Both the position numbers and the translations under genes were made by a program. Of a stretch of 13,143 nt of DNA, positions 1 through 13,143 are shown piece by piece; the first letter of the stretch is position 1; every line of letters starts with the position of its first letter. Origin of the DNA: a virus (Duplodnaviria; Heunggongvirae; Uroviricota; Caudoviricetes). The stretch spans positions 1-13,143 of the IMG/VR virus record IMGVR_UViG_2617270950_000005. One strand, given 5' to 3'. Under the pieces are notes generated by a model, which was not told the origin of the DNA, searched no databases, and worked only from the letters and a program-made list of their open reading frames with translations.

Positions 1-1
1 A

Positions 2-667
2 CTTCTTAACATGCTGGATATTAAAGGAAAAATCATCACAACTGATGCGATGGGTTGCCAGAAAGATATTGCAGAGAAGATACAAAAACAGGGAGGTGAT
101 TATTTATTCGCGGTAAAAGGAAACCAGGGGCGGCTAAATAAAGCCTTTGAGGAAAAATTTCCGCTGAAAGAATTAAATAATCCAGCGCATGACAGTTACG
201 CAATGAGTGAAAAGAGTCACGGCAGAGAAGAAATCCGTCTTCATATTGTTTGCGATGTCCCTGATGAACTTATTGATTTCACGTTTGAATGGAAAGGGCT
301 GAAGAAATTATGCGTGGCAGTCTCCTTTCGGTCCATAATAGCAGAACAAAAGAAAGAGCTCGAAATGACGGTCAGATATTATATCAGTTCTGCTGATTTA
401 ACCGCAGAGAAGTTCGCCACAGCAATCCGAAACCACTGGCATGTGGAGAATAAGCTGCACTGGCGTCTGGACGTGGTAATGAATGAAGACGACTGCAAAA
501 TAAGAAGAGGAAATGCAGCAGAATTATTTTCAGGGATACGGCACATTGCTATTAATATTTTGACGAATGATAAGGTATTCAAGGCAGGGTTAAGACGTAA
601 GATGCGAAAAGCAGCCATGGACAGAAACTACCTGGCGTCAGTCCTTACGGGGAGCGGGCTTTCGTAA
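2..667 (+). CDS. ydcC: ISAs1-family (H-repeat-associated) transposase, C-terminal part; the gene starts upstream of the window
   Basis: Open frame runs from the window edge to TAA at 665-667. Translation (…[30 protein letters not shown]…[20 protein letters not shown]…) resembles Rhs-associated H-repeat / ISAs1 transposases. Its position upstream of pptA-yddH-nhoA matches the K-12 gene order as I recall it. Confidence 0.75.
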
Positions 668-766
668 TCTTGCCCTGGGCATTATTGTCGTATAAACGCT
701 TTACCGGACACATGACATTCACAATGTGTGTTAATTTTACTGACATCTTTCAAAAGGAGCGTAATC

Positions 767-1000
767 ATGCCGCACATCGACATTAAATGTTTTCCGCGTG
801 AACTGGACGAACAACAAAAAGCAGCACTTGCTGCAGATATTACCGACGTTATTATTCGTCATCTGAACAGTAAAGACAGTTCGATAAGCATTGCTCTACA
901 GCAGATTCAACCAGAATCTTGGCAAGCTATCTGGGATGCCGAAATCGCGCCCCAAATGGAGGCTTTGATAAAGAAACCTGGTTATAGCATGAATGCTTAA
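767..1000 (+). CDS. pptA: Tautomerase PptA (4-oxalocrotonate tautomerase family), 77 aa
   Basis: ATG at 767 lies 7 nt after AAGGAG. The protein begins [13 protein letters not shown], with the N-terminal Pro typical of the tautomerase superfamily. The track ORF 728-1000 starts at an upstream GTG that is probably not used. Confidence 0.85.
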
Positions 1001-1566
1001 CCCGCCGTAACACGCTTGCCGCTGGTAACAAACGTCCCAGCACCTAAATGATGCAACGTATTGAGCTTATCATCATCAAACTGCCAGCGGCCTTCGACAA
1101 ATACCCGTGCGTCTGCCGCTGCTGATACTACTTCGCCAAACAGCGTGTCGTATTCTTCTTGCGCAGAAGTCGCAGGTAGCAATCGACACTCCATCCACGC
1201 CAGACATTTTTCCTCGACCAGAGGCAAACCAAATACCGGGCCTCTCACAACCGGAATGCCATAGCAATTAAATTTATCTTCATCACGCCCCGACACACTT
1301 CCCACCGCCCACGTCCAGTTAGTTGCTGCAACGCCCGGGATAACGATGCCAAATTTACCGTTATGTTCAATCAACTCCCTGGTCCATGTCGATTTATCTA
1401 CCACAATCGCCACGCGTGGAGGTTCAAACTCCACCGGCATTGACCAGGCTGCAGCCATAATGTTACGCCGCTGGGATTGCTCATCGAAACTGGTGATCAA
1501 GACCGTTGGGCCATGATTTAACAGACGGCTGGCATGGTGTAATTCTATGGGGATGAATCGGCTCAT
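997..1566 (-). CDS. yddH: Flavin reductase-like domain protein YddH, 189 aa
   Basis: Minus-strand ORF. The internal Met ([26 protein letters not shown]…) gives the expected length. Convergent with pptA, and the two stop codons overlap. Confidence 0.8.
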
Positions 1567-1738
1567 GGTATCGCCTCGCGAAGAAGGTTTTTTTAAGCGT
1601 AGTCCGTAACGCAATAAGTAACGAAATTAACGGGATTGGCGATTTGCGAACGTGATGCATGTCCGCGATCGCACAAAATAGCCGGTGCGGCGTCTATTCC
1701 AGGTTATAAGTTGAGAAAACCACTAAGGGAAACGCCTG

Positions 1739-2584
1739 ATGACGCCCATTCTGAATCACTATTTTGCCCGTATTAACTGGTCGGGAGCTGCTGCGGTCAA
1801 TATTGATACGCTTCGTGCATTGCACCTGAAACACAATTGCACCATTCCGTTTGAAAACCTCGACGTTTTGCTGCCGAGGGAAATACAGCTTGATAATCAA
1901 TCGCCGGAAGAGAAACTGGTGATAGCCCGTCGTGGCGGTTACTGTTTTGAGCAGAATGGCGTGTTTGAGCGGGTGTTACGCGAGCTGGGGTTTAACGTTC
2001 GCAGCTTGTTAGGGCGCGTAGTGTTATCAAATCCGCCAGCATTACCGCCGCGCACCCATCGTTTGCTGTTGGTGGAACTGGAAGAGGAAAAATGGATTGC
2101 TGATGTCGGTTTCGGTGGGCAGACGCTAACCGCGCCGATTCGTTTAGTTTCCGATCTCGTGCAGACCACGCCACACGGAGAGTATCGGTTGTTGCAGGAG
2201 GGGGATGATTGGGTGTTGCAGTTTAATCATCATCAGCATTGGCAGTCGATGTACCGTTTTGATCTCTGCGAGCAGCAACAAAGCGATTATGTGATGGGCA
2301 ATTTCTGGTCGGCGCACTGGCCGCAGTCGCATTTTCGCCATCATTTGCTGATGTGCCGCCATTTGCCGGACGGCGGCAAGCTGACACTGACCAATTTTCA
2401 TTTTACCCATTATGAAAATGGGCACGCGGTGGAGCAGCGAAATCTACCGGATGTGGCGTCATTATATGCTGTGATGCAAGAACAGTTTGGTCTGGGCGTG
2501 GATGATGCGAAACATGGCTTTACCGTGGATGAGTTAGCGCTGGTGATGGCGGCGTTTGATACGCACCCGGAGGCGGGAAAATAA
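1739..2584 (+). CDS. nhoA: Arylamine N-acetyltransferase (N-hydroxyarylamine O-acetyltransferase), 281 aa
   Basis: 281-aa ORF preceded by AAGGGA. It carries the NAT-family catalytic Cys context (RRGGYCFEQN) and matches the expected gene order after yddH. Confidence 0.9.
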   Translation: MTPILNHYFARINWSGAAAVNIDTLRALHLKHNCTIPFENLDVLLPREIQLDNQSPEEKLVIARRGGYCFEQNGVFERVLRELGFNVRSLLGRVVLSNPPALPPRTHRLLLVELEEEKWIADVGFGGQTLTAPIRLVSDLVQTTPHGEYRLLQEGDDWVLQFNHHQHWQSMYRFDLCEQQQSDYVMGNFWSAHWPQSHFRHHLLMCRHLPDGGKLTLTNFHFTHYENGHAVEQRNLPDVASLYAVMQEQFGLGVDDAKHGFTVDELALVMAAFDTHPEAGK

Positions 2585-2595
2585 TTTATGTCAGG

Positions 2596-2630
2596 TTGCC
2601 GGATGCGGCGTAAACGCCTTATCCGGCATA
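2596..2630. repeat. REP (repetitive extragenic palindromic) element in the nhoA-yddE intergenic region
   Basis: GCCGGATGCGGCGTAAACGCCTTATCCGGC is the classic enterobacterial REP consensus shape. It is flanked by the inverted pair TGTCAGG (2589-2595) and CCTGACA (2650-2656). Confidence 0.6.
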
Positions 2631-2679
2631 CATTAGCCCGGTTGTAGACCTGACAGGCGAAGCGCATCAGACAACGGTT

Positions 2680-2865
2680 TCAGAGTTCAATTGCCCATTC
2701 GGCATGAAACAAAATCACCGCTGTGCCTGAAATGGTGACTTTTTCCGGTTGGTTATCACGAATTGTCACCGTCACTTCAATCATACCGTCACGCCCCAAT
2801 GCGCGCCCCTGATGGCCTTTAACACGCAACACGTTGCCATCGTGGGGCAATTGTAACCAGGTGAA
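2680..2865 (-). pseudogene. yddE: 3' remnant (C-terminal ~62 codons) of PhzF-family isomerase gene yddE, truncated by the prophage insertion
   Basis: Minus-strand frame ending at stop (TCA on plus strand, 2680-2682) translates to …FTWLQLPHDGNVLRVKGHQGRALGRDGMIEVTVTIRDNQPEKVTISGTAVILFHAEWAIEL. This has the G-x-I-x-V-x-V … G-x-A-V pattern of PhzF/YddE C-termini. The frame hits a stop at 2866-2868 where prophage-like sequence begins, with no start codon or N-terminal part. Confidence 0.6.
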
Positions 2866-3101
2866 TCATTTGATACCAACGAGGGTTTTAGTGAAAGGAG
2901 GTGAAATCACCTGTAAGATACTGAAATAAAACAGGTGATGTCTGGATGAGCGCTTAAAGTCTATTTGATATCGATTGTGCAATAATTAATCGTTTATTCT
3001 AAAATCGGCAAAACTTTTGATACTGCGATCTCAACTTTTTAAAGCGTTTAAAACTTCATTAAATCTATATGGCAACTAACATACGGGCCAGCCTCGCCAA
3101 A
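2866..3101. repeat. Putative prophage left-end (attL-like) region with repeated candidate transposase-binding motifs
   Basis: TTTGATAYY occurs three times (2869-2877, 2964-2972, 3016-3024), spaced 95 and 52 bp, similar to the L1/L2/L3 layout of Mu attL. A perfect palindrome AGGTGAAATCACCT lies at 2899-2912 and CAGGTGA recurs at 2932-2938. Confidence 0.35.
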
Positions 3102-3632
3102 CTAACCCGCTTTAGATTCTACCGGATTTGATTGCCTACTTGTCTCGGTTTTTTCCAAAATCTCTCTGACGCAATCGTCTGGCATATCTACAATCATCAA
3201 CGCAGCCAGGCGCTTCCTGCCTTCTAGTTGTAATAAATCCTGGTTTTCTTTATTCAGCAGTGTCAGAACCGTCTCCACACCTTTGCGAGCAAGGAGATTG
3301 GTTAACTGTTCTCGTTCGTCTTTCGTAAGGAATGAAAGCATCTGTGTAAGCTGATCTCCCTTATCACCAGAACAACCAAAATTACCATAAATACCAATAT
3401 CGTTTGGTAATTCACCCTTGCCCTCTTTAAGCCACTCAAGACTAACGCCTTCACTTTCAGAAATTCGTATAAGGATACTTTCTCTGGGGGCTGGTTGTGT
3501 TTGTCCTCCCTTGAAATAGCTGTTTAATGTGTTGATATTGATTCCCCACGCTCTGGCAGCTGCACTTCTTGAAGGGTAGCGCTTTGTAAGCATTCCAATA
3601 CGTTCAATAACAGGTTCTTTTCCCTGCGACAT
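3102..3632 (-). CDS. c: Mu-type repressor (c-like), about 176 aa
   Basis: Leftward ORF divergent from ner, the same position as Mu c. Start taken at ATG (CAT 3630-3632) with AGAGGT 6 nt upstream; the longer track ORF reaching 3707 is an unsupported N-terminal extension. N-terminal region (RIGMLTKRYPSRSAAARAWGININTLNSYFKGG) looks like an HTH. Confidence 0.65.
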   Translation of the reverse strand: MSQGKEPVIERIGMLTKRYPSRSAAARAWGININTLNSYFKGGQTQPAPRESILIRISESEGVSLEWLKEGKGELPNDIGIYGNFGCSGDKGDQLTQMLSFLTKDEREQLTNLLARKGVETVLTLLNKENQDLLQLEGRKRLAALMIVDMPDDCVREILEKTETSRQSNPVESKAG

Positions 3633-3707
3633 AAAGATACCTCTTGGTGCTTTTCTAAGGAAAGGTTTCTTTCTATTTATCCAATTGAAAAATAAGGATA
3701 AAAGCAA

Positions 3708-3822
3708 AAATTAGCCAAAATACCAAAAATACCTTGATTTGGTATTTTTGGTGATGCATTATTTACCCGTACAGATATCCGCACGAATATCCGCGCGGGT
3801 AACTTTTTAGAATAGAGGAAGT
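3708..3822. promoter_or_regulatory. Divergent early promoter/operator region between repressor and ner
   Basis: CCAAAATACC at 3715-3724. Inverted repeat CCAAAAATACC (3723-3733) / GGTATTTTTGG (3741-3751). Tandem 12-bp direct repeats GATATCCGCACG (3774-3785) and AATATCCGCGCG (3786-3797) just upstream of ner. TTGATT at 3734-3739 is a possible -35. Confidence 0.55.
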
Positions 3823-4071
3823 ATGAGTAGAAGAGAAGTTTCAGATCACGATTGGCCGCCTGAAATCATCAAGGCGCGCTTACACATGGCTGGCTTATCA
3901 CTGCGCTCTTTATCTTTAAAGGCTGGTTACAGCAGGGATTCGCTGAAAAGCGTATTACGTACTCCTTGCCGACCGTATCAGCAAATAATTGCTGATGCTC
4001 TTGGGGTATCACCTGAAGAAATCTGGCCCAGTCGATACCAGGTTAAGAGCTATATGAGAAAGGCGTCATGA
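3823..4071 (+). CDS. ner: Ner-like DNA-binding transcriptional regulator, 82 aa
   Basis: Protein has Ner/Nlp family hallmarks (…QIIADALGVSPEEIWPSRYQ…). AGAGGAAG RBS. Sits immediately upstream of the transposase gene as in Mu. Confidence 0.85.
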   Translation: MSRREVSDHDWPPEIIKARLHMAGLSLRSLSLKAGYSRDSLKSVLRTPCRPYQQIIADALGVSPEEIWPSRYQVKSYMRKAS

Positions 4072-4072
4072 T

Positions 4073-6163
4073 ATGTATGTCATTGCAAAAGAACTGATTG
4101 GCGCGCCCGGAATGCCTGCTACAACAAAAGGTATTCGCCAGGCATTACAACGTTACGTACAAGGGAAAAGCTGTTGTTCCCGTCGTCGCTCAGGCTCTAA
4201 AGCAACTGAATACAGCATCGACTGTTTACCTGAAGTGACGCAGCAGGCATTACGTGAACGCTACGCCCTGCAACTGATGACGCAAAAAGCCGATGAATCA
4301 CCGGCTCCGGTGGTGACAAAGGCCAGACGCTCACCTGCCGTGGTTGATGCGGTGGAGGCATATCGCGGATCACCCCAACTGATGGTCGAACGCCTCAATG
4401 CCCTGACTGAAAACCAACGTAAAGTGGCAGAGGCACGAATAGCGATCGTCAGCGAGGTGCTGAAAATCGCGCAACAACCCGGCTTTAGTTGCGCTAAGGC
4501 TATCCGGTTCCTCGTTAACAGCCTGGCACGATCACAACTGGACGAGCGCATTGTGGCAATGGTTGAGACGGCGAACGCCAAAAAGGGAAACAGCCGCGCG
4601 TTGAGTGAAATCACGCTGAAACGCTGGATTGCGGCCTTTAACAAGGCACAGAACGCCGCTGAACGCCTGCTTTTACTGGCACCGGGTAAACGCCAGGAAA
4701 TAAAAGCCGAAGATATTAACTGGCTGCCCGAATTTCTGGCGCAGTATCGCCAGTCAAACGGCCGACCAATGACCGAGGCTTACGAGGATTTTGTTGCTGA
4801 ATGGCAGCACCGGCACGCTGATGAGCCTTATATGCTCGATATCATGCCCTCTTATGACACCATTCGCCGCGCAATGAAGAAACTGCCGGAAGTGGTGAAA
4901 CAAAAAGGCCGGGTAACTGGCAGTGAATACCGTCAGCTTGAGGGATTCACGCGCCGCGACTGGTCCAGAATGCCGGTGAATTATGTCTGGATTGGTGACG
5001 GTCACGGCATGAAGCTGAAATGCGCGCACCCGGTTCACGGGCGGCCATTCGCACCGGAAGTGACCTTTGTTATCGACGGTGGCACGCGCTTTGTGGTGGG
5101 CTGGAGTCTTGACCTGGCTGAAAATGTTTTCGCCGTAGCCGGTGCCATACAGCACGGTATTCGCCATCATGGCAAACCGTTTCTGTATTACTCGGATAAT
5201 GGCTCCGGGGAAACCGCCGACGTCCTGGATAAGGAGATTGTGGGGATACTGCCACGACTGGGGATTAATCACCCGACAGGGATTGCCGGTAATCCGCAGG
5301 GACGGGGCATTATCGAACGGCTTAACCGCACATTACCGATGCGCATAGCCCGTAAATACCGCACCTATTTCGGGAAAGGAGCAGATCGCGAGACGTTACG
5401 TAAAACCAACCGCGATTTACGCTCGGCATTCAGTGCCCTGCAACAGGGCAAACGGCTGAACGCCCGGCAGCAGTCAGCGATGCGTGATTTACCGTCCTGG
5501 TCTGAACTGATTGATGCCATTCGTGACGGTGTTGAGTGGTACAACAACCGGCCGCACGATGAATTACCCATGAAGCCGAACGGTAAACATTACAGCCCGG
5601 CGGAGTTCAGAAAAAAACGCCTGGCGGAAGAGGACACGGAAATTGAATGGCTGTCCGATGTTGAACTGCGGGATATGTTCCGGCCGATGGTGGAGCGCCC
5701 TGTAAGACGCTGTGAAATACGCTGGCTGAATAATATTTACTACGCGCCCGAGCTGCGTGACGAGCATGGCCGTAAGGTACTTATCAGCTATGACATTCAT
5801 GATGCCGAACGAATTACCGTGCGCCGCCCGGATGGCAGCGTGATTTGCGAGGCGGTATGGGACGGCAATAAACGCGAAGCCTTCCCTGTCAGCGCGGAAT
5901 ACTACAAACAGCAGCAGCGCCTTAAAGGCATGCGTAAACGCGCAGAGGAAAAAATCCGTGATGCCGAGGATGAGGTTGTCAACGTGCTGGAGCACAAGCC
6001 GCAGGAGCCCTGGCTGGAAAACATATACCGCCCTGTGGGTAATACGGTGACCGTTCAGCAACCGGTCGCTGACGATGAACCTGATGAAGAATACGAGCGT
6101 AATTTCCAGCGGGGATTGCAACTGCTCGAAGCGAAATTAAAAGAAAGTGATCCGCTGGCCTGA
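4073..6163 (+). CDS. A: MuA-like DDE transposase, 696 aa
   Basis: Large ORF with candidate DDE residues in WIGDGHGMK, YYSDNGSG and GIIERLNRT contexts. Size and position match Mu transposase A. Confidence 0.9.
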   Translation: MYVIAKELIGAPGMPATTKGIRQALQRYVQGKSCCSRRRSGSKATEYSIDCLPEVTQQALRERYALQLMTQKADESPAPVVTKARRSPAVVDAVEAYRGSPQLMVERLNALTENQRKVAEARIAIVSEVLKIAQQPGFSCAKAIRFLVNSLARSQLDERIVAMVETANAKKGNSRALSEITLKRWIAAFNKAQNAAERLLLLAPGKRQEIKAEDINWLPEFLAQYRQSNGRPMTEAYEDFVAEWQHRHADEPYMLDIMPSYDTIRRAMKKLPEVVKQKGRVTGSEYRQLEGFTRRDWSRMPVNYVWIGDGHGMKLKCAHPVHGRPFAPEVTFVIDGGTRFVVGWSLDLAENVFAVAGAIQHGIRHHGKPFLYYSDNGSGETADVLDKEIVGILPRLGINHPTGIAGNPQGRGIIERLNRTLPMRIARKYRTYFGKGADRETLRKTNRDLRSAFSALQQGKRLNARQQSAMRDLPSWSELIDAIRDGVEWYNNRPHDELPMKPNGKHYSPAEFRKKRLAEEDTEIEWLSDVELRDMFRPMVERPVRRCEIRWLNNIYYAPELRDEHGRKVLISYDIHDAERITVRRPDGSVICEAVWDGNKREAFPVSAEYYKQQQRLKGMRKRAEEKIRDAEDEVVNVLEHKPQEPWLENIYRPVGNTVTVQQPVADDEPDEEYERNFQRGLQLLEAKLKESDPLA

Positions 6164-6171
6164 AATAAAAA

Positions 6172-6199
6172 AATAACCCGAGGGGTGACTCAGGTTATT
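6172..6199 (+). other. Stem-loop in the A-B intergenic region
   Basis: AATAACCCGAG (6172-6182) pairs with CTCAGGTTATT (6189-6199) at 10 of 11 positions across a 6-nt loop, 9 nt after the A stop codon. Confidence 0.25.
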
Positions 6200-6245
6200 T
6201 GAGGTTTCAGTCTCGGAGAATGCTGTCTCAAGCGAGGTGAATAAT

Positions 6246-7178
6246 ATGACCGATATTAACGATGTAATCAAGACCATTGATGAACTTATTGATGGCGGCG
6301 TACTGACGCAGTATGCCATCGCCAGAGAGGCGGGAATTTCCGACGGCACATTATCGGCTTTCCGTAAGGGAAAATATAAAGGCGATAACGCTGCTGTGGC
6401 TGCTTCCCTGCGCTCCTGGTATGAGAACTGGAATAAACAAAGCGCACTGCCGGAACCGCCGCAGTTTGTGGAAACTCAGACAGTCCAGGAGCTGCGCGCA
6501 CTGTTTCAGGCGGTTCGCCTGATGGGCTGTATTAACGTTATTGTGGGCGTACCGGGTGTGGGTAAAACGGCCACTGCCCGTAATTACTGCCAGGAGCAAC
6601 CAAACACCTGGATGATCACCCTGTCACCCGCGCACTCCAGCGTCACGGAGTGTCTGCTGGAGCTGGCCGATGCGCTGGGGATTGATTACACCCGCGCGAA
6701 CAAAGGGGCATTATCCCGCGCCATCCGCCGTCGCCTGATGGGAACGCGTGGACTGGTGATTGTGGATGAGGCGGATCATCTTGGTATTGACGGTCTGGAG
6801 CAACTCCGGGCAATTCAGGACGCCACGGGGATCGGGATGGTGCTTATTGGTAACCCGCGCGGATTGTTTAAAGGTGGACGCCGCGCCTTTGATGATTTAT
6901 CGCGCCTGTTCAGCCGTCTTGCCCGTACAAAACAACTTCGCAAGGCCAAAAAGGCGGATGTGCTGGCCATTGCCATGGCGTGGGGGATCAGTGGTGAGGC
7001 CGAGCTGGCCGTCATGCAGGCTATCGCTGAAAAGCCGGGAGCGTTACGCGTTCTGACACATACGCTTAACCAGGCGTGGCTCACCGCCAGCGGTGAAGGC
7101 GCGGCGCTGACAGAAAAACATATTAATGCGGCCTTTAAAGAGGTTTATACCAACCCTGAATTACTCTCACAGGTGTGA
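6246..7178 (+). CDS. B: MuB-like AAA+ ATPase (transposition target-DNA activator), about 310 aa
   Basis: Walker A GVPGVGKT and Walker B-like LVIVDEAD. N-terminal HTH-like region. Start moved to ATG 6246 just after GAGGTGA; the track start at 6237 is a GTG inside the RBS. Confidence 0.9.
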   Translation: MTDINDVIKTIDELIDGGVLTQYAIAREAGISDGTLSAFRKGKYKGDNAAVAASLRSWYENWNKQSALPEPPQFVETQTVQELRALFQAVRLMGCINVIVGVPGVGKTATARNYCQEQPNTWMITLSPAHSSVTECLLELADALGIDYTRANKGALSRAIRRRLMGTRGLVIVDEADHLGIDGLEQLRAIQDATGIGMVLIGNPRGLFKGGRRAFDDLSRLFSRLARTKQLRKAKKADVLAIAMAWGISGEAELAVMQAIAEKPGALRVLTHTLNQAWLTASGEGAALTEKHINAAFKEVYTNPELLSQV

Positions 7179-7180
7179 TT

Positions 7181-7402
7181 ATGGCGGTATTTAATATTCC
7201 TGATATTTACGGACGCTTTTACCTGGTTAATTTCGATAACGTGAAGGTGATTTCACTGGCCGAAAATAAAGAATGTGGCGATTTACTTTTTGAATTTAAT
7301 GACCGCACACGAATGGTGATATCTGCCGGACTTGATCGCGAAGGTGCGACAGAAGTTTACAGCGGAATATGCCGTTCTGTTGGTGCGAAACAAGTCAGCT
7401 AA
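7181..7402 (+). CDS. Hypothetical small protein (73 aa) in the position of Mu kil
   Basis: ORF starts right after the B stop and shares the early operon orientation. No recognisable motif. Confidence 0.5.
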   Translation: MAVFNIPDIYGRFYLVNFDNVKVISLAENKECGDLLFEFNDRTRMVISAGLDREGATEVYSGICRSVGAKQVS

Positions 7403-7414
7403 ATGAGGTGTTAT

Positions 7415-7669
7415 ATGAATATGCAATCCTGCGGTAACAAAATGAATTTATTCGACTCCCTGAACAGCGCGCGCCGTCTGACCGAACTTGCCGGTGCGGT
7501 ACTGGAACGCAGTAAGCGCTATCCGCAACGTTTTGCACTGAAAACCACGCCGCCGGTAGGCAACGTGCAGGGAACCGGTGAAATTGAAATCACCATACAG
7601 ACCAACGGCCTGCGCCGCCGTGTGAAGGCCACCCGCATCAGCGGCTGCACGGTTTACTGGGAGGTGTGA
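7415..7669 (+). CDS. Hypothetical protein, 84 aa
   Basis: ATG 7415 preceded by GAGGTG at 7406-7411; the track start at 7403 overlaps that RBS. Packed head to tail with its neighbours. Confidence 0.5.
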   Translation: MNMQSCGNKMNLFDSLNSARRLTELAGAVLERSKRYPQRFALKTTPPVGNVQGTGEIEITIQTNGLRRRVKATRISGCTVYWEV

Positions 7670-7670
7670 G

Positions 7671-7952
7671 GTGAAAAAAAATCTCATTGCATGGGCGTGG
7701 TCGAGTGGTCTTATTGAGTTTGGTTACGTCCTGCCGGAAGGTGCATTGCCGATAGTTGCCGGAAAGCCTGCCACGGTACGGCATGTGATTGAGGTTATGG
7801 CGCGTCATGGACGTGATGAACAGGAGCAGTTACTGGTTCCGGGGATACCGGAAGCGGTGACGGAGGAAGAAGCCTTTAATGCCATGATTCGGTTCTGCCG
7901 TGAGGTCAGACGCCGGGTCAGTTATCCAAACAGAACGAGGACCAGAGGATGA
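7671..7952 (+). CDS. Hypothetical protein, 93 aa (GTG start)
   Basis: GTG 7671 follows GGGAGGTGTGAGG, 2 nt after the previous stop. No recognisable motif. Confidence 0.5.
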   Translation: MKKNLIAWAWSSGLIEFGYVLPEGALPIVAGKPATVRHVIEVMARHGRDEQEQLLVPGIPEAVTEEEAFNAMIRFCREVRRRVSYPNRTRTRG

Positions 7953-8221
7953 GTAAAGTCGTACACATTATTTTCGAATATAAGGAGCACGTTATCCATA
8001 AAAACGCTGATGGAACAGTGCGCATGGGGGTAAGTCTGGACATACGTTCAACCGGGATAAAGCAGAAAGGTGATGGACCCGCCATGATTTTTGGGGTGGT
8101 TATGCTCGCGGAAAGCAGAAACTTCGCAGAGCTTGTGGCAATGAAAGCCAGTGCATTCATGAAAGACAGGGGCATGGCTTCCGGGGTTATTAACGGTAAT
8201 GAATTTAATCAGCAGGGGTAA
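7949..8221 (+). CDS. Hypothetical protein, 90 aa; first of two tandem paralogs
   Basis: ATGA overlap with the upstream ORF. N-terminus MSKVVHIIFEYKEHVIH resembles the next ORF's N-terminus. Confidence 0.55.
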   Translation: MSKVVHIIFEYKEHVIHKNADGTVRMGVSLDIRSTGIKQKGDGPAMIFGVVMLAESRNFAELVAMKASAFMKDRGMASGVINGNEFNQQG

Positions 8222-8225
8222 TTCC

Positions 8226-8519
8226 ATGAGCAAAGTACGCGTTATTTTTGAATTTAACCACGTAATGCATGAAGTAAAGCCAGCCGGTAATGATAGTCAG
8301 GAAATCACGGAGGGGGTTACTGCCACTGTAAAAATCGAACGTGATACGGAGAACAGACCGACAGGCCCATGTGATGTTTATGCGCAAATTCTTAAATATC
8401 ACAGCCCCACAATTATTCAGTTTCTGACAGATGAACTTCAGGGTTCCATGCAGGCTCTGGGGGTGAAAAGCAGCATTGAGCGCCGCTCCTTGCAGAACGC
8501 ACCAGATACATTGCAATAA
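8226..8519 (+). CDS. Hypothetical protein, 97 aa; second tandem paralog
   Basis: Start at ATG 8226 (MSKVRVIFEFNHVMH…); the track's upstream start at 8199 overlaps the preceding ORF. Shares the N-terminal motif of the previous ORF. Confidence 0.55.
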   Translation: MSKVRVIFEFNHVMHEVKPAGNDSQEITEGVTATVKIERDTENRPTGPCDVYAQILKYHSPTIIQFLTDELQGSMQALGVKSSIERRSLQNAPDTLQ

Positions 8520-8530
8520 GGAAAAACAAA

Positions 8531-9061
8531 ATGGCAAAACGCGTTACAAAATTAAAGGCTGTAGCCGAGGCCGCACCGCAGACCCGCGAAGAAGTCAGCC
8601 GCGATATCCGCACCCTGGGCGATATTCAGCGAGAGGCGCTGCGCCTGGAAACGGCGATGAATGATGAAGTGGCAGAAATCACCGCCCGTTATACGCCGCA
8701 GATTGAAAATCTTAAAAAGCAAATCAAAGTGCTTTTTAAAGGGATTCAGGACTGGTGTAAAACCAACCGTGATGAGCTGACGAACGGCGGCAAAACCAAA
8801 ACTGCCAATCTGACCACCGGAACGGTGTCATGGCGGCTGGGAACGCCATCATGCAGCGTCAGCCGTGATGTGGAAGGTGTGATTGACACGCTGCGCCGTA
8901 TGGGGCTTGAGCGATTCATCCGCACGAAAGAGGAAGTGAACAAGGAAGCCGTCCTGGCGGAGCCGGATGCGGTGAAAGGCATTGCCGGTATAAAGGTGAA
9001 TAAAGGCGCTGAAAGTTTTTATGTCGAGCCTTTTGAACAGGATGCCGGACTGAATAAATAA
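8531..9061 (+). CDS. gam: Gam-like host-nuclease inhibitor (Ku-like DNA-end-binding protein), 176 aa
   Basis: Strong resemblance along its length to Mu Gam as recalled (…RLETAMNDEVAEI…NRDELTNGGKTKTANLTTGTVSWRL…RFIRTKEEVNKEAVL…EPFEQDAGL). Confidence 0.9.
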   Translation: MAKRVTKLKAVAEAAPQTREEVSRDIRTLGDIQREALRLETAMNDEVAEITARYTPQIENLKKQIKVLFKGIQDWCKTNRDELTNGGKTKTANLTTGTVSWRLGTPSCSVSRDVEGVIDTLRRMGLERFIRTKEEVNKEAVLAEPDAVKGIAGIKVNKGAESFYVEPFEQDAGLNK

Positions 9062-9158
9062 CACCGCATTAATTATTTAAATATCACTTCATTTTAATTA
9101 TGGCGCTCGCGTCAGGGGACTGCTTGCGCCTGAAAGCTGAAAATAAGGAATCGGAAAT

Positions 9159-9701
9159 ATGGCATATTTTTATTTCAAATTAGACCGTGTGCAGACAAAT
9201 AAATATTTCACCAAATATCAACAGGCTGTTTTACCGCTACGCAACAGTATTCTTCGGACATTACTGAAAAATACAGGCGCTGCCGGATTGCGCTTAAAGC
9301 CGTTCGCCATGGACAGAATCAGTGAGTTTTATTTTGCCGGTGCTCTGCCTGCGGGCTGGCGTAAGCGCGATGATGTGGCTTTTATCGGTGGCGGACAGTG
9401 CTTTATAGCCAGACCTGATGAGTCATGCCCTGAAGGACCGGCGATTGCCGCAATGATTGAAGCCGCTGAACGCGAGTTAAGAAAGCGTCCTGATTTCCTT
9501 GTCTGGCTCTGTGAAAAGCTGGGGGTAATGAGAATCCCCTCCATGTTTAACACGGACTCCTGGTGGACCCCTTCGTTCTCCCGTGATGCCCTGTGCGTGG
9601 TGTTTAAAGTGGGCGCTTATGGCAGGGGAATAAAAGGATGTATTCCTGAAGAATGCCAGGAAATTAAACATTCTGAATATGTGGCGCTGACGGAGGAATA
9701 A
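9159..9701 (+). CDS. Hypothetical protein, 180 aa (accessory ORF A)
   Basis: ORF follows AAGGA and the only sizeable intergenic gap (97 bp) in the early operon. AT-rich 5' end. No recognisable motif. Confidence 0.55.
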   Translation: MAYFYFKLDRVQTNKYFTKYQQAVLPLRNSILRTLLKNTGAAGLRLKPFAMDRISEFYFAGALPAGWRKRDDVAFIGGGQCFIARPDESCPEGPAIAAMIEAAERELRKRPDFLVWLCEKLGVMRIPSMFNTDSWWTPSFSRDALCVVFKVGAYGRGIKGCIPEECQEIKHSEYVALTEE

Positions 9702-9704
9702 TTC

Positions 9705-10238
9705 ATGATTGATGCAAAAGTGCTTGAAGGGGTTAAAAACTGGCTGAGTATTTACGGGCGTCTGACCTGCGGCGTACTGGCTGAAAAAATGAATATGCCG
9801 CCATCCTCCATGGTTTATTTTCTGCGTGATGCGGTTGATGCCGGGGTGCTGACGGAATGTAACGGTTTTTATGATATTCCGCGTTCCCGCCCGGTGCAGC
9901 CGATTCGTCGCAAATGCAGACAGGAATCTGCGGCTGATGATGTTCAGTGGTGCAGCTTCAGAAAATCCCTGCCATGGATTGAGGGGCATGATATTCCGTC
10001 GATGGCGTGGGAATTTGCTCAGGGCGTTCTGACCTGTGAAACCGTTTATGTGGTGGCTGAAGTTGATGAGCAGGCCATGAAAGAAGGCGTGCCCCAGTTT
10101 GTGATGGCGTATATCGACATTCGCCTGGGTGTCATCATCTGCGGTTTAAGCGGCTGGAATATCACCGCGCGTGTTCTGCGCTACCTGATTGTTGACCGGA
10201 CAGCAGCGCCTGCCGGGATATCTGCGGAGGTGGCGTAA
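9705..10238 (+). CDS. Hypothetical protein, 177 aa, with possible N-terminal winged-helix DNA-binding domain (accessory ORF B)
   Basis: 3-nt gap from ORF A. N-terminal 60 aa (…GVKNWLSIYGRLTCGVLAEKMNMPPSSMVYFLRDAVDAGVLTE) has a wHTH-like pattern. C-terminal half has no known motif. Confidence 0.55.
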   Translation: MIDAKVLEGVKNWLSIYGRLTCGVLAEKMNMPPSSMVYFLRDAVDAGVLTECNGFYDIPRSRPVQPIRRKCRQESAADDVQWCSFRKSLPWIEGHDIPSMAWEFAQGVLTCETVYVVAEVDEQAMKEGVPQFVMAYIDIRLGVIICGLSGWNITARVLRYLIVDRTAAPAGISAEVA

Positions 10239-10753
10239 TGTTCTTTAAAACATCAAACCCTTCCGCGCTGGCTGCGTGGCAAAAATACCAGCAGGACTGC
10301 CAGACGGTAAAAGATGAGGCGAAACGCCTTGAGGCCGTGCTGAATGTTGCGTGCCGGTCGGTATTTGAATTCAGTATCAGTGGTTTTTGTTTTAAGGGAC
10401 TGCGTTTTACGGAGGACAAATATCCTTTTCATCGCGACTTATGGCGAAAACCGACTGCGTCGAATGGCTGGAGCTGCACACCGCGCACATCACGTATCCC
10501 TAAAGCCCTGCGTGTTGCCTCTGATGAACTGAACAGTCTGTGGCGTGAATATTCGCCCGTCACGTATGCCAGAACCGATGCCCTGTTGTTCTGGCTGGGT
10601 ATTGACTTCTCAGCAATATTGTATGGTCCCGTGAACTGGTTCTGCGTTGACAATGTGATTTATCTTCAGTGCGAAGATGATTCCGCAAAACGGAAAATGA
10701 CCGAAATTCTGTCTGATGAGTTTTATGCTGCCGAAAAGCGAGTCAGGGGGTGA
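10238..10753 (+). CDS. Hypothetical protein, 171 aa (accessory ORF C)
   Basis: TAATG stop/start overlap with ORF B indicates translational coupling. No recognisable motif. Confidence 0.55.
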   Translation: MFFKTSNPSALAAWQKYQQDCQTVKDEAKRLEAVLNVACRSVFEFSISGFCFKGLRFTEDKYPFHRDLWRKPTASNGWSCTPRTSRIPKALRVASDELNSLWREYSPVTYARTDALLFWLGIDFSAILYGPVNWFCVDNVIYLQCEDDSAKRKMTEILSDEFYAAEKRVRG

Positions 10754-10756
10754 TGT

Positions 10757-11308
10757 ATGATGATTTTACAACACATGGGGCGAAAAGGTCGTACACCCGC
10801 TCATGTCCGCGCGTGGACACCTGAAGAAGATGCGCTACTGATTGCGCTTTATTCATCCACCCCGGTTAAGGATATTGCTGCCAGAATAAAAAGAACTGTC
10901 TGGGCTGTATATAACCGGACTGGTGTATTGCGCAGTTCATACCCGGAGTTACTGAAATATAAACACCCAAGATTTACACCTGATGAAGATAAGTTTATTC
11001 GAAAAAATGCCAGAACAATGACCTGCCAGCAAATGGGAGAATATCTCGGACGTAATAAAGATTCTGTCAGATGTCGGGCAGGAATGATTGGTGCTGGATT
11101 AACAAAGTGCGGAGAGTTACGCCCCGGCACGCGCATATCTGATGATGATGTACGTCTTATACGTGCGCTGCGTGATTCCGATTACCCACGCCGTCTGTCA
11201 TTCCGGGAAATTGGCGAAAAGTTTGGAATATCTGAACATTCTGCTCACGCAGTTTATTACCGTCGCCGGACTGCCGAGGACGCTGTATTACGGGAGTTAA
11301 CGCCATGA
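10757..11308 (+). CDS. Hypothetical DNA-binding protein with three HTH-like repeats (Myb/SANT-like W-TPEED motifs), 183 aa (accessory ORF D)
   Basis: Internal repeats RAWTPEEDALLIALY…, PRFTPDEDKFIRKN…, and ISDDDVRLIRALRD…LSFREIGEKFGIS…. RBS AGGGGG before ATG 10757. Confidence 0.55.
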   Translation: MMILQHMGRKGRTPAHVRAWTPEEDALLIALYSSTPVKDIAARIKRTVWAVYNRTGVLRSSYPELLKYKHPRFTPDEDKFIRKNARTMTCQQMGEYLGRNKDSVRCRAGMIGAGLTKCGELRPGTRISDDDVRLIRALRDSDYPRRLSFREIGEKFGISEHSAHAVYYRRRTAEDAVLRELTP

Positions 11309-11634
11309 TAACGACCTTATTTGTTGAATCAGATGAACCTCTTGTGTGTGCCGCCGGAATGCCGCTCTGTGGCGGAACGCTGACCGGTGTTTATTTCGGG
11401 GATTTACGCGGTTATCCCTGGCATTCACTGAATGATGCTTTCCCACCTGATATGGAGGCTGTCGTGCTGATTGTTCAGTATGGTCACCGTCAGGAGCTGC
11501 GCATCGGCCATATGGGGTATGAAGGCTTTTTTGTTGATGAAGAAACCGGAGCCTGCCTTGAAGATGAAGACGGACAGGTGACGCACTGGTGTCATATTTC
11601 GGCTTTACCGGAATTACGGGAGGTGAATGCGTGA
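11305..11634 (+). CDS. DUF551-like phage protein, 109 aa (accessory ORF E)
   Basis: ATGA overlap with ORF D. C-terminal …DGQVTHWCHISALPE resembles the DUF551 signature (…THW.PLPEPP) common in enterobacterial prophage accessory proteins. Confidence 0.5.
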   Translation: MITTLFVESDEPLVCAAGMPLCGGTLTGVYFGDLRGYPWHSLNDAFPPDMEAVVLIVQYGHRQELRIGHMGYEGFFVDEETGACLEDEDGQVTHWCHISALPELREVNA

Positions 11635-11981
11635 GAAGTTATATTGATAATGAAAAGCTGGAGACAATAAGCGACTGTCTTAGCTTGCTGGCAAAAATCA
11701 AAGAAACTATTGAAGAGATTAAATTTCAGCTTGAATACGCACCATGTGGCGATGATGCATGGCGTAATGCTGCCAGAAAAGCACTGGCTGTCTTTCAGAA
11801 ACAACGCCGGGCTGTTGAATACCGCCTTGCTGTATTGCGCCAGGAGGAAAAGGAAAGAAATATAAGACGTCATGAACGCGTTAATGATTTCCTTGTTCGT
11901 GAATTAAAAGAGCGCGTGCCGGAGTCGGTATTTTTTGAATGTGAGGCTATAGCCCGTAGCAAAGCACTGGAAACAGATTAA
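11631..11981 (+). CDS. Hypothetical coiled-coil protein, about 116 aa (accessory ORF F)
   Basis: GTG 11631 lies 5 nt after GGGAGGTG and overlaps the ORF E stop (GTGA). The alternative ATG 11589 would overlap ORF E by 45 bp. Charged heptad-like sequence (…LAVLRQEEKERNIRRHERVNDFLVRELKER…). Confidence 0.45.
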   Translation: MRSYIDNEKLETISDCLSLLAKIKETIEEIKFQLEYAPCGDDAWRNAARKALAVFQKQRRAVEYRLAVLRQEEKERNIRRHERVNDFLVRELKERVPESVFFECEAIARSKALETD

Positions 11982-11996
11982 GCAGGCAGGTGAATA

Positions 11997-12305
11997 ATGA
12001 GTATTGAATTAAGATCGTCTTATGAATATCGCAAAATCCTTATCGCCGGAGGCATGAAACCGGAAGATGCAGAGAAATTCGTTTCTTTTATGGATAAAGA
12101 ATGTGACAAGCGGGATATGCCAGAAATTATTATGGATGACATGATTCTGGATTCAGCCGTGGCGTTAAGTCCGTTATGGATTGTGCATACTCTTGCGGAA
12201 ATAGCTAAAAGAAGTGACAAGCAGGCGGCTGTCGCCGCCCTGCGATTACTGGCTGAATTAAGTTGTTCAGTCAATCCCAATACGTTCTTTGACGAACCTG
12301 GTTAA
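11997..12305 (+). CDS. Hypothetical acidic protein, 102 aa (accessory ORF G)
   Basis: ATG preceded by AGGTGA. AT-rich. Its 3' end overlaps the convergent minus-strand ORF by 39 bp. Confidence 0.5.
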   Translation: MSIELRSSYEYRKILIAGGMKPEDAEKFVSFMDKECDKRDMPEIIMDDMILDSAVALSPLWIVHTLAEIAKRSDKQAAVAALRLLAELSCSVNPNTFFDEPG

Positions 12306-12677
12306 CATTGATTTGGTAACTTCTTTAATTAGATCAAATGGTGCGTCTGTAAACTCCTTTTTGATTCTTTCAAGGATTGGTTTTTTTCTCAGGGCGTTAG
12401 CTAAATCATGCCCCTGCTGGGTAAGCATAATGGGCGTGTTTCTGAAACCAACGCCCAGAGAATGGAAAAAGAAACCAATATATTTGGGTGTTTCTGACTG
12501 CATATCACCATTAACAATTGAGCCATTATCAGCGAGAAGCATAAGATGAAAAACTTTTTTATCCTTTTCCTCTCCTTCTGCCTCAGCCATGCCCAGATCC
12601 TGTAGTGTAAGGAAAGGTGTTTCAGCATCCTGAAAAGTTGTGAGAATACTTAATACTTCATCGTAATCTATTTTCAT
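12267..12677 (-). CDS. Hypothetical protein, 136 aa; lone minus-strand, AT-rich moron inside the rightward early operon
   Basis: Clean 136-codon ORF antisense to the early operon, with AAAGGT about 7 nt upstream of its ATG. Visibly more AT-rich than flanking prophage DNA. No recognisable motif. Confidence 0.55.
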   Translation of the reverse strand: MKIDYDEVLSILTTFQDAETPFLTLQDLGMAEAEGEEKDKKVFHLMLLADNGSIVNGDMQSETPKYIGFFFHSLGVGFRNTPIMLTQQGHDLANALRKKPILERIKKEFTDAPFDLIKEVTKSMLTRFVKERIGID

Positions 12678-12698
12678 ATCGATACCTTTAGTTTTATC

Positions 12699-12728
12699 CG
12701 GGCGGCGTTGCCATGCCGCCTGTTGTTA
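12699..12728 (+). terminator. Possible GC-rich stem-loop followed by a U-rich tract
   Basis: GGCGGC (12701-12706) pairs with GCCGCC (12715-12720) across an 8-nt loop, followed by TGTTGTTA. It lies between the minus-strand moron start and the gemA-like ORF. Confidence 0.25.
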
Positions 12729-12741
12729 CGGAGACACGATA

Positions 12742-12945
12742 ATGAATCGCGCTTCCCTGATTACCTTAATACATGTCGCAAAACGCGATCTACAGCTTGA
12801 CCATGAGACCTACACATCCGTACTACTGGCAGCCACCGGCAAACCCAGTTGCCGGGATATGTCACCGGATGAGTTATCCCGCGTGCTGGATGTTTTCAAA
12901 AAACGCGGTTTTAAAGTGCGTCAGAAGCCGGTTACCGGAATATGA
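12742..12945 (+). CDS. gemA: GemA-like (Mu gp16 / DUF1018 family) protein, short form of 67 aa
   Basis: MNRASLITLIHVAKRDLQLDHETYTSVLLAATGKPSCRDMSPDELSRVLDVFKKRGF matches the conserved N-terminal GemA/DUF1018 pattern as recalled. The ORF then stops. Confidence 0.55.
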   Translation: MNRASLITLIHVAKRDLQLDHETYTSVLLAATGKPSCRDMSPDELSRVLDVFKKRGFKVRQKPVTGI

Positions 12946-13082
12946 ATGTGCTGGATGATATTCTCACGCCGCTGCGTATTTATGAAGGCGGTGCGCTGGA
13001 ATGTATTCTGAACCGTTATAAGCCTGCATGGCAGACGTTTATTTACGTTTATGCAAACAGCCATGAAGAGGAGACTATTTAA
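12942..13082 (+). CDS. Small ORF (46 aa) coupled to the gemA-like ORF by an ATGA overlap; possibly the frameshifted continuation of gemA
   Basis: ATG 12942 overlaps the TGA of the gemA-like ORF; ends at TAA 13080-13082. Below the 60-aa cutoff of the ORF track. No motif. Confidence 0.3.
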   Translation: MNVLDDILTPLRIYEGGALECILNRYKPAWQTFIYVYANSHEEETI

Positions 13083-13143
13083 TGTTTCATGTTGATAATA
13101 ATTCCGGCGTGGCGAATATGCCTGCGCTGGCACCGGCGCAGAG
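13082..13143 (+). CDS. 5' end of a further early-operon ORF that runs off the window
   Basis: TAATG overlap with the previous ORF. Begins MFHVDNNSGVANMPALAPAQ with no stop before the window end. Confidence 0.3.
   Translation, partial: MFHVDNNSGVANMPALAPAQ

Follow-up and report, generated by a model that had tools for sequence, protein, structure and literature searches.

The stretch of DNA analysed here (the window; 13,143 nucleotides, positions 1 to 13,143 of the IMG/VR record IMGVR_UViG_2617270950_000005) begins with Escherichia coli chromosome and continues into the left portion of a Mu-like (Sp18-type) prophage. At 11305–12305 of the window, the forward strand of the prophage carries three short open reading frames (ORFs): E (11305–11634; 109 residues; isoelectric point 4.30; phrog_6925), F (11631–11981; 116 residues; phrog_6158), and G (11997–12305; 102 residues; isoelectric point 4.69; phrog_1988). 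A DUF2513-like gene of 136 residues (12267–12677; phrog_585) lies on the minus strand, divergent from gemA. The 3′ ends of G and of this antisense gene overlap by 39 bp (12267–12305), comprising the last 12 codons and the stop codon of both genes. An earlier description made from the letters alone (the sequence-only reading) had placed the three forward ORFs within exactly these limits and had the block end where the territory of the antisense gene starts, and both statements hold. The segment is probably a variable and dispensable part of the early operon of the Sp18-type prophage, in which E, F, and G would be separate modules that are shuffled independently.

The three ORFs are closely coupled, as had been proposed. 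The stop codon of the preceding Myb/SANT-like gene shares the letters ATGA with the start codon of E, and the stop codon of E shares GTGA with the start codon of F; a gap of 15 nt separates F from G, which has AGGTGA as a good ribosome-binding site. F starts with GTG and is preceded by the Shine–Dalgarno sequence GGGAGG; this start is the one chosen by RefSeq in the relative from strain JKHS016, not an alternative longer start at 11589 in the ORF list. E, F, and G each belong to a PHROG family without assigned function, with E-values from 1e-38 to 1e-55. The ratio of nonsynonymous to synonymous substitution rates (dN/dS) is 0.06–0.20 for E, 0.10–0.19 for F, 0.22–0.47 for G, and 0.13 for the antisense gene. 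The family membership and the purifying selection indicate that E, F, and G are real protein-coding genes rather than chance ORFs. The label of acidic protein given to G agrees with its isoelectric point, but E is the more acidic of the two. The sequence of G is marked by the motifs LIAGGM and DKQAAVAAL.

The prophage copy in the window has lost everything from codon 67 of gemA to the tail-fibre region, and the ORFs could accordingly be decaying remnants in a dead prophage that no longer function. However, all of them are intact, E, F, and G are 100% identical to their copies in the intact prophage of JKHS016, and the families are under strong purifying selection, which makes decay very improbable.

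The variable slot extends from the Mu gp12-like gene (10238–10753) to gemA, its right-hand anchor. We compared 81 loci, which reduce to 40 distinct sequences. The loci come from IMG/VR, RefSeq E. coli genomes, two Shiga toxin (Stx) phages with inserted Mu-like phages, Mu, and Citrobacter, and were retrieved via E, G, the gp12-like anchor, or the gp11-like anchor; the scan of genome contigs with the gp11-like protein returned one locus only, in Citrobacter braakii. The 40 distinct sequences display at least six layouts. The window type is Myb–E–F–G followed by the antisense DUF2513-like gene. Other loci carry Myb–E–F–G with two unrelated forward ORFs, or with nothing after G; Sp18 of E. coli O157 Sakai has E–F–G and lacks the antisense gene. 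In another layout, the Myb gene is followed by a hydrophobic ORF of 61 residues, G, and two forward ORFs, and in yet another, Myb–E is followed by Mu gp13-like, gp14-like, and antisense gp15-like ORFs. The antisense ORF of these layouts with E alone resembles Mu gp15 with an hhalign probability of 67%. In Salmonella-type prophages, E directly follows gp12, with other genes behind it, and one Salmonella locus reads gp12–E–F, an unrelated antisense gene of 183 codons, and gemA, without G.

The genes also differ in frequency: of 5,426 complete E. coli genomes searched by megablast, 144 have E, 127 have F, 214 have G, and 7 have the antisense gene. Mu has nothing that corresponds to E, F, or the Myb gene. 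The Myb/SANT-like gene (10757–11308) is itself variable, with two alleles (~72% versus 95–100% identity) and absence from the Salmonella/Citrobacter-type relatives, and its GC content at third codon positions (GC3) is 0.37. Therefore, the accessory stretch starts at 10757 rather than at 11305. The accessory nature of the block, which had been suggested before, is borne out: the block lies in a stretch that varies among close relatives, is itself missing from Mu, and deviates in composition over its right-hand two thirds, and neither a uniform composition nor conservation in all relatives is seen.

The sequence-only reading went further and took E, F, G, and the minus-strand gene for one cassette from an AT-rich source, inserted into the Mu-like early operon. 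Two observations speak for such an origin: six or seven E. coli genomes with window-type alleles (at least 99% identity) hold all four genes together, and F, G, and the antisense gene share a low GC content that makes up the second strongest low of the prophage. However, the single-cassette idea fails on the unequal genome counts and on the number of gene combinations, which indicate that E, F, and G are independently shuffled modules.

The composition separates E from the other genes as well. The GC content is 0.506 for E (GC3 0.464), 0.427 for F, 0.424 for G, and 0.387 for the antisense gene, the lowest of any gene in the prophage (mean 0.489). F and G are thus well below the transposition genes A (0.540) and B (0.555), as had been stated of the whole block, but E exceeds the prophage mean and is not AT-rich. 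With a GC content of 0.454, the 1001-bp segment 11305–12305 ranks at the 13th percentile among prophage windows, and in tri- and tetranucleotides it is less distant from the prophage average than the mean window (z about −0.5). The deviant stretch proper is 11631–12677, which spans F, G, and the antisense gene (GC content 0.413; 1.7th percentile of windows of the same size; k-mer z 1.6–1.9). The k-mer deviation begins at about 11550, and the low ranks second in the prophage, after the repressor/operator end. A low patch thus exists, but it is shifted one gene to the right of the one first drawn and excludes E, and the 1-kb window itself is unremarkable. Early genes elsewhere in the prophage are equally AT-rich (e1, 0.419; repressor, 0.433).

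E also has a history of its own. In distant prophages whose neighbour genes are only 46–68% identical, E is 81–85% (~83%) identical, and its dN/dS of 0.06 persists even where dS is saturated at 1.3–1.8. Most of the distant prophages were retrieved by exact peptide matches to E, which biases the comparison towards high identity of E; the Citrobacter locus, found via the gp11-like anchor and the one unbiased case, likewise has an E that is 83% identical. The retention of E at ~83% with low dN/dS while the flanks diverged argues against a recent import. Among distant relatives, no gene of the region is better conserved than E, which would be older and more constrained than F and G.

The antisense gene, in turn, was lost rather than left uninserted where it is missing from a close relative. 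Pairwise alignment with a near-identical relative (locus L091) reveals a clean deletion of 365 bp, corresponding to 12326–12690, which removes the antisense gene, its start included, except for the last 59 bp. Because these 59 bp remain, the gene was lost in the relative, not gained in the window prophage; the relative has a deletion scar, not an empty site. Together with the frequencies, the layouts, and the composition and conservation of E, this leaves acquisition of the four genes as one cassette highly unlikely, and the independent shuffling of E, F, and G remains our preferred reading.

Of the proposed link between the antisense gene and the block, only the part that concerns G holds, and this part is stronger than had been suspected. 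We searched IMG/VR from the DUF2513 protein itself and obtained 17 loci with sufficient sequence. All 17 carry a convergent, overlapping G-like ORF, with an overlap of 39 bp in 14 and of 30 bp in 3. The loci are diverse: the identity is 45–100% for DUF2513, 45–67% for GemA, and 48–58% for MuB, and goes down to 34% for G. The DUF2513 gene is always directly divergent from the adjoining gemA, with a spacer of 30–72 bp. Salmonella/Citrobacter-type prophages retain the same 39-bp overlap, and the G tail F-(D/N)-E-x-G, with a G-like protein of 41% and a DUF2513-like protein of 52% identity. A locus with half of G beside a DUF2513 gene (L104) looked like a further natural layout and proved to be an IS1 truncation.

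The arrangement recurs outside these loci. The Klebsiella Mu-like phage Kp4866-3 (flagged UNVERIFIED in GenBank; MuA 58% identical) has it with an overlap of 29 bp, a DUF2513 protein of 31% identity, and a partner of 102 residues that is ~20% identical to G. The partner is G-like according to hhalign (probability 88%; score 36.5, with 14.2 as the maximum among 30 shuffles). In the lambdoid Klebsiella phage ST846-OXA48phi9.2 (locus L126, 4001–4802), a DUF2513 gene is flanked by the lysis cassette and the gene of the small terminase subunit; the convergent Cys-rich ORF of 111 residues beside it was rejected as a G homologue (probability 0.1%).

Mu itself has the same geometry at the same position. 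Its gp14 (plus strand, 7655–7957), a forward gene of ~100 codons, and gp15 (minus strand, 7896–8162), divergent from gemA, overlap by 62 bp. Neither has detectable homology to its counterpart in the window: the comparisons of G with the gp14 family and of the DUF2513 gene with gp15 give E 0.14 and no alignment by BLASTP, and probabilities of 0.7% and 0.5% by hhalign. That the unrelated pair of Mu repeats both geometry and position suggests that the arrangement itself is selected.

G and the DUF2513-like gene could thus form a functional two-gene module, in which a protein made in the lysogen is paired with an early partner, G, and the two are mutually exclusive via convergent transcription. 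The lysogen protein would possibly be a DNA-binding regulator of gemA–mor or an exclusion factor, which G counteracts or cooperates with. The constant geometry down to 45% (DUF2513) and 34% (G) identity in the 17 loci, its recurrence in Kp4866-3, the fixed position beside gemA, and the analogous pair of Mu are consistent with such a module. So is the C-terminal tail of G, F-(D/N)-E-x-G, which is kept only with the partner; partnerless alleles of G end differently. However, G occurs alone in ~200 E. coli genomes, where its dN/dS is 0.05–0.16, indicating by this purifying selection that G does not need the DUF2513 partner. In addition, the convergent neighbour in the lambdoid phage is unrelated to G, the 39 bp are physically shared, so that linkage alone could hold the pair together, and a crude scan found no promoter for the antisense gene. 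We consider a functional module possible but doubtful. The conserved convergent pair next to gemA is in any case modestly interesting and apparently previously undescribed; in the literature searched, no paper mentioning DUF2513 was found.

Across Mu-like prophages, the minus-strand spot before gemA holds unrelated genes, namely DUF2513-like genes, Mu gp15-like genes (79–121 residues), and the gene of the 183-residue protein mentioned above (Salmonella, locus L097, 5409–5960), which has hydrophobic N-terminal segments and Cys-x-x-Cys motifs. Judged by its occupants, the position behaves as a recurrent slot for antisense cargo.

The antisense protein of the window matches Pfam DUF2513 (PF10711) over positions 1–96 of the 100 of the profile, with 23.6 bits (E 6.6e-5), below the gathering score of 29.6. 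Six divergent relatives show the same weak match (16.7–18.7 bits), and RefSeq names the product 'DUF2513 domain-containing protein'. Consistent, nearly full-length matches and the RefSeq naming make it likely, if formally unproven, that the protein is a distant member of DUF2513. The Mu-like subfamily differs from the profile in an extra conserved C-terminal segment, KPILERIKKEF.DAPF.... A PDB sequence search with the protein returned nothing meaningful.

The description of the antisense gene as a moron holds in part. The gene is moron-like in its opposite orientation, in being the most AT-rich gene here, in its rarity (7 genomes), in its presence or absence among close relatives, and in being removable without disturbing its neighbours. 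Morons of lambdoid phages are autonomous transcription units placed between genes; for the antisense gene, a crude scan detected no promoter or terminator of its own. Nor is the gene a recent insertion, given its old association with G at a fixed position in many Mu-like lineages. In some relatives the spacer to gemA is only 30 bp, so that any antisense promoter there would fall within the coding sequence of gemA.

The 64-bp spacer between the starts of the antisense gene and gemA in the window (12678–12741) contains a GC-rich hairpin on the plus strand with a 10-bp stem and a 4-nt loop (12699–12722). Its folding energy is −24.5 kcal/mol (z −2.6), which none of 200 shuffles matches. In Salmonella/Citrobacter-type relatives, a T6 run comes after the equivalent hairpin, so that the structure resembles an intrinsic terminator of the early strand, placed immediately upstream of the gemA ribosome-binding site. 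A third group of relatives has the 30-bp spacer, with a different small inverted repeat.

E had been called DUF551-like. Neither E nor 11 of its relatives matches Pfam DUF551 (PF04448; gathering threshold 22 bits), even at E ≤ 10. A remote relative, P0051 (37% identical to E), matches the profile with its C-terminal half at 15.9 bits (E 0.025); for scale, the named DUF551 member YfdS itself scores only 22.2 bits. With YfdS as the single DUF551 sequence used as target, hhalign aligns residues 44–103 of the E family onto residues 54–117 of YfdS (probability 65%; E 5.9e-5; 55 columns), with the common motifs PP..E.V.L and (V/I)THW...P.PE. A remote resemblance of the C-terminal half of E to DUF551 is thus reasonable, but membership is unproven. 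A PDB sequence search with the E profile gave nothing meaningful and no DUF551-related sequence, and the Ea22 structure 8DSX covers a different C-terminal domain, not DUF551. YfdS of the K-12 prophage CPS-53 is a named carrier of DUF551, a portable domain of unknown mechanism (PMC10834534). DUF551 proteins of lambdoid prophages, such as YfdS and the Ea22 V2 variants, are, like E, small early or accessory prophage proteins, but E has its own conserved 40 N-terminal residues, beginning with an invariant MITTLFVES.

The first 30–40 residues of P0051 match proteins of SJ46, vB_EcoM-813R1, 66FD, and PAT1, phages of Salmonella and E. coli that include P1-like ones; these proteins lack the C-terminal half. 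The match to proteins without the C-terminal half suggests that E-like proteins are built of two separable domains. The E family is narrow: an indexed search finds it in Escherichia and Salmonella only, plus a few remote relatives, and an exhaustive hidden Markov model search of 1.84 billion representatives yields only 14 relatives, one of which, a eukaryote-type fn3 repeat protein, is spurious.

F is highly charged and probably helical, with a conserved core RLAVLRQEEKE..N....VNDFLV.EL. Its earlier label as a coiled-coil protein is not supported by a crude heptad test, in which 9% of shuffles reach the observed enrichment at the a and d positions; a match to the spectrin repeat is weak (E 0.019). 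Homologues of F are 66% identical in Salmonella and ~50–51% identical in Serratia. In the one Serratia marcescens genome that was looked up, the homologue (5001–5357 of locus L096) resides in a prophage showing no Mu-type genes and no E. There it is the second-to-last prophage gene, preceded by an unrelated ORF of 157 residues with a 4-bp overlap and followed by a PrtN/pyocin-activator-like gene.

The chromosomal part of the window comprises an insertion sequence (IS)-type transposase fragment, nhoA-like and neighbouring genes, and a remnant of yddE. An ORF of 218 residues at the left edge (11–667) resembles the C-terminal part of an IS-type (DDE) transposase. The left boundary of the prophage is at about 2850–2852, where the end starts TGTAACCAGGTGAATCA..., and the element is inserted in yddE, a gene for a PhzF-family isomerase: within 2700–2860, its left end (~2852) abuts a yddE fragment. 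Related prophages occupy other chromosomal sites, as expected for transposition. A 2026 paper on small RNAs of enterohaemorrhagic E. coli names the Mu-like prophage Sp18 only as lost from a mutant strain.

From the left, the prophage encodes the repressor (3102–3632, minus strand), ner, located between the repressor and transposase A genes in early-operon order, transposase A (4073–6163), and B (6246–7178), followed by five small early ORFs. Next come gam (8531–9061), an ORF of 180 residues, and the Mu gp11-like gene (9705–10238), which adjoins the gp12-like gene. Two early ORFs are mosaic among close relatives: one of 97 residues (8226–8519) is either ~60% or 95–100% identical, and the 180-residue one (9159–9701) is 88–99% or ~24% identical, or absent. 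The Myb/SANT-like gene encodes a DNA-binding protein of 183 residues with an isoelectric point of 10 (Pfam Myb_DNA-binding, 25.2 bits; phrog_323, 'transcriptional regulator').

The gemA gene (12742–12945, plus strand) is truncated to 67 codons, matching positions 1–45 of the 119 of the Pfam GemA profile. Homology to intact relatives stops at 12938, and 12948–13098 resembles the Mu gp48/S tail-fibre region. With gemA broken off after codon 67 and fused to tail-fibre-like DNA, this prophage copy is defective: it is internally deleted, with mor, the lysis and head genes, and most tail genes gone, and cannot produce particles. The same deletion junction is found in the IMG/VR contig IMGVR_UViG_2609459799_000003, and IMGVR_UViG_2778261416_000003 is rearranged in another way at almost the same point. 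In the intact, near-identical prophage of JKHS016, gp16/GemA is full-length, and genes for Mor, lysozyme, and the head come after it. Since the gene order matches that of the Mu-like early operon and continues to gemA–Mor in JKHS016, the region of E, F, and G is the equivalent of Mu's semi-essential early (SEE) region. The SEE region of Mu is variable, dispensable, and poorly conserved (PMC4553209).

Given their position on the early strand, downstream of the transposition genes, E, F, and G would be co-transcribed with these genes from the early promoter once the repressor is lifted, and would be translated by coupling. Recombination at gene boundaries would shuffle the modules among Mu-like prophages. 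Most likely, as proposed for accessory early genes of other transposable phages, the products would be small proteins made early, which bind factors of the host or the phage and modulate lytic development in particular hosts, through host takeover or counter-defence. We assume that the lysogen expresses the antisense gene, which convergent early transcription would silence upon induction. These expectations on expression timing, dispensability, and biochemical function draw on operon position, on the SEE region of Mu, and on the accessory genes of other phages.

Several observations weigh against this account. PADLOC-DB, which covers known anti-phage defence systems, has no match for the ORFs at E ≤ 0.1, except a meaningless 10-bit one for G. 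NCBIfam and Pfam (above threshold) give no match, PDB sequence searches with the E profile and the antisense protein give none of meaning, and Rfam finds nothing over 10700–13143 at E ≤ 1. The AlphaFold2 models of E (from a 12-sequence alignment) and G (all-alpha) have predicted local distance difference test (pLDDT) scores of 45 and 52, respectively, and both are too poor to use. For the antisense gene, the crude consensus scan of the minus strand finds neither a sigma-70-like promoter upstream of 12677 nor a terminator after 12267. The loci compared are mostly from Enterobacterales and were found by sequence similarity, so the frequencies of the layouts are not population estimates. In addition, the genes may serve no phage purpose in this genome, which has lost mor and the late genes.

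A broader proposal extends from the pair to the slot. The site upstream of gemA in Mu-like phages could be a conserved device for a convergent gene pair, with G and the DUF2513-like gene as an undescribed two-component module for lysogeny and lysis. The reverse gene (DUF2513-like, or gp15 in Mu) would be expressed solely when the early operon is off, and the products of the forward (G, or gp14 in Mu) and reverse genes would act on each other or on the gemA–mor control region. We regard this extension as speculative and unlikely. The independently shuffled early modules are the reading that we carry forward.

Early accessory regions of temperate phages are a repeated source of genes for host takeover and counter-defence. 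The slot described here offers a defined set of small families (E, F, G, DUF2513-like, and their alternates), and because hundreds of sequenced E. coli strains provide natural presence/absence variants, its genes are easy to test genetically. The G/DUF2513 pair and the analogous, unrelated gp14/gp15 pair point to a selected, undescribed arrangement beside the gemA–mor regulatory genes. If the pair is functional, it would be a small addition to how transposable phages separate lysogenic and lytic expression; otherwise, it would be ordinary prophage mosaicism.

The closest known counterpart is the SEE region of Mu, where gp13, gp14, and antisense gp15 are, like the genes of the slot, small and tightly packed ORFs that follow gp11 and gp12 and precede gemA–mor. 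In some close relatives of the window prophage, gp13-, gp14-, and gp15-like genes of Mu replace F, G, and the DUF2513 gene. Mu-like phages of Pseudomonas aeruginosa keep short accessory ORFs of low GC content at fixed positions termed 'regions of genomic plasticity', which are mainly in the left arm; some of these ORFs encode anti-CRISPRs (Cazares et al. 2014, PMC4378225). These regions resemble the slot in lying at a fixed spot, in holding zero to several short ORFs that vary among otherwise collinear genomes and are mostly without assigned function, and in often being GC valleys. They differ in belonging to another host group, in sharing no sequences with the slot, and in that a convergent overlapping pair has not been described in them; the anti-CRISPR loci of the Pseudomonas phages lie in the late region, not before gemA. 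The region analysed here is thus of a known kind, a plastic accessory segment in the early arm of transposable phages.

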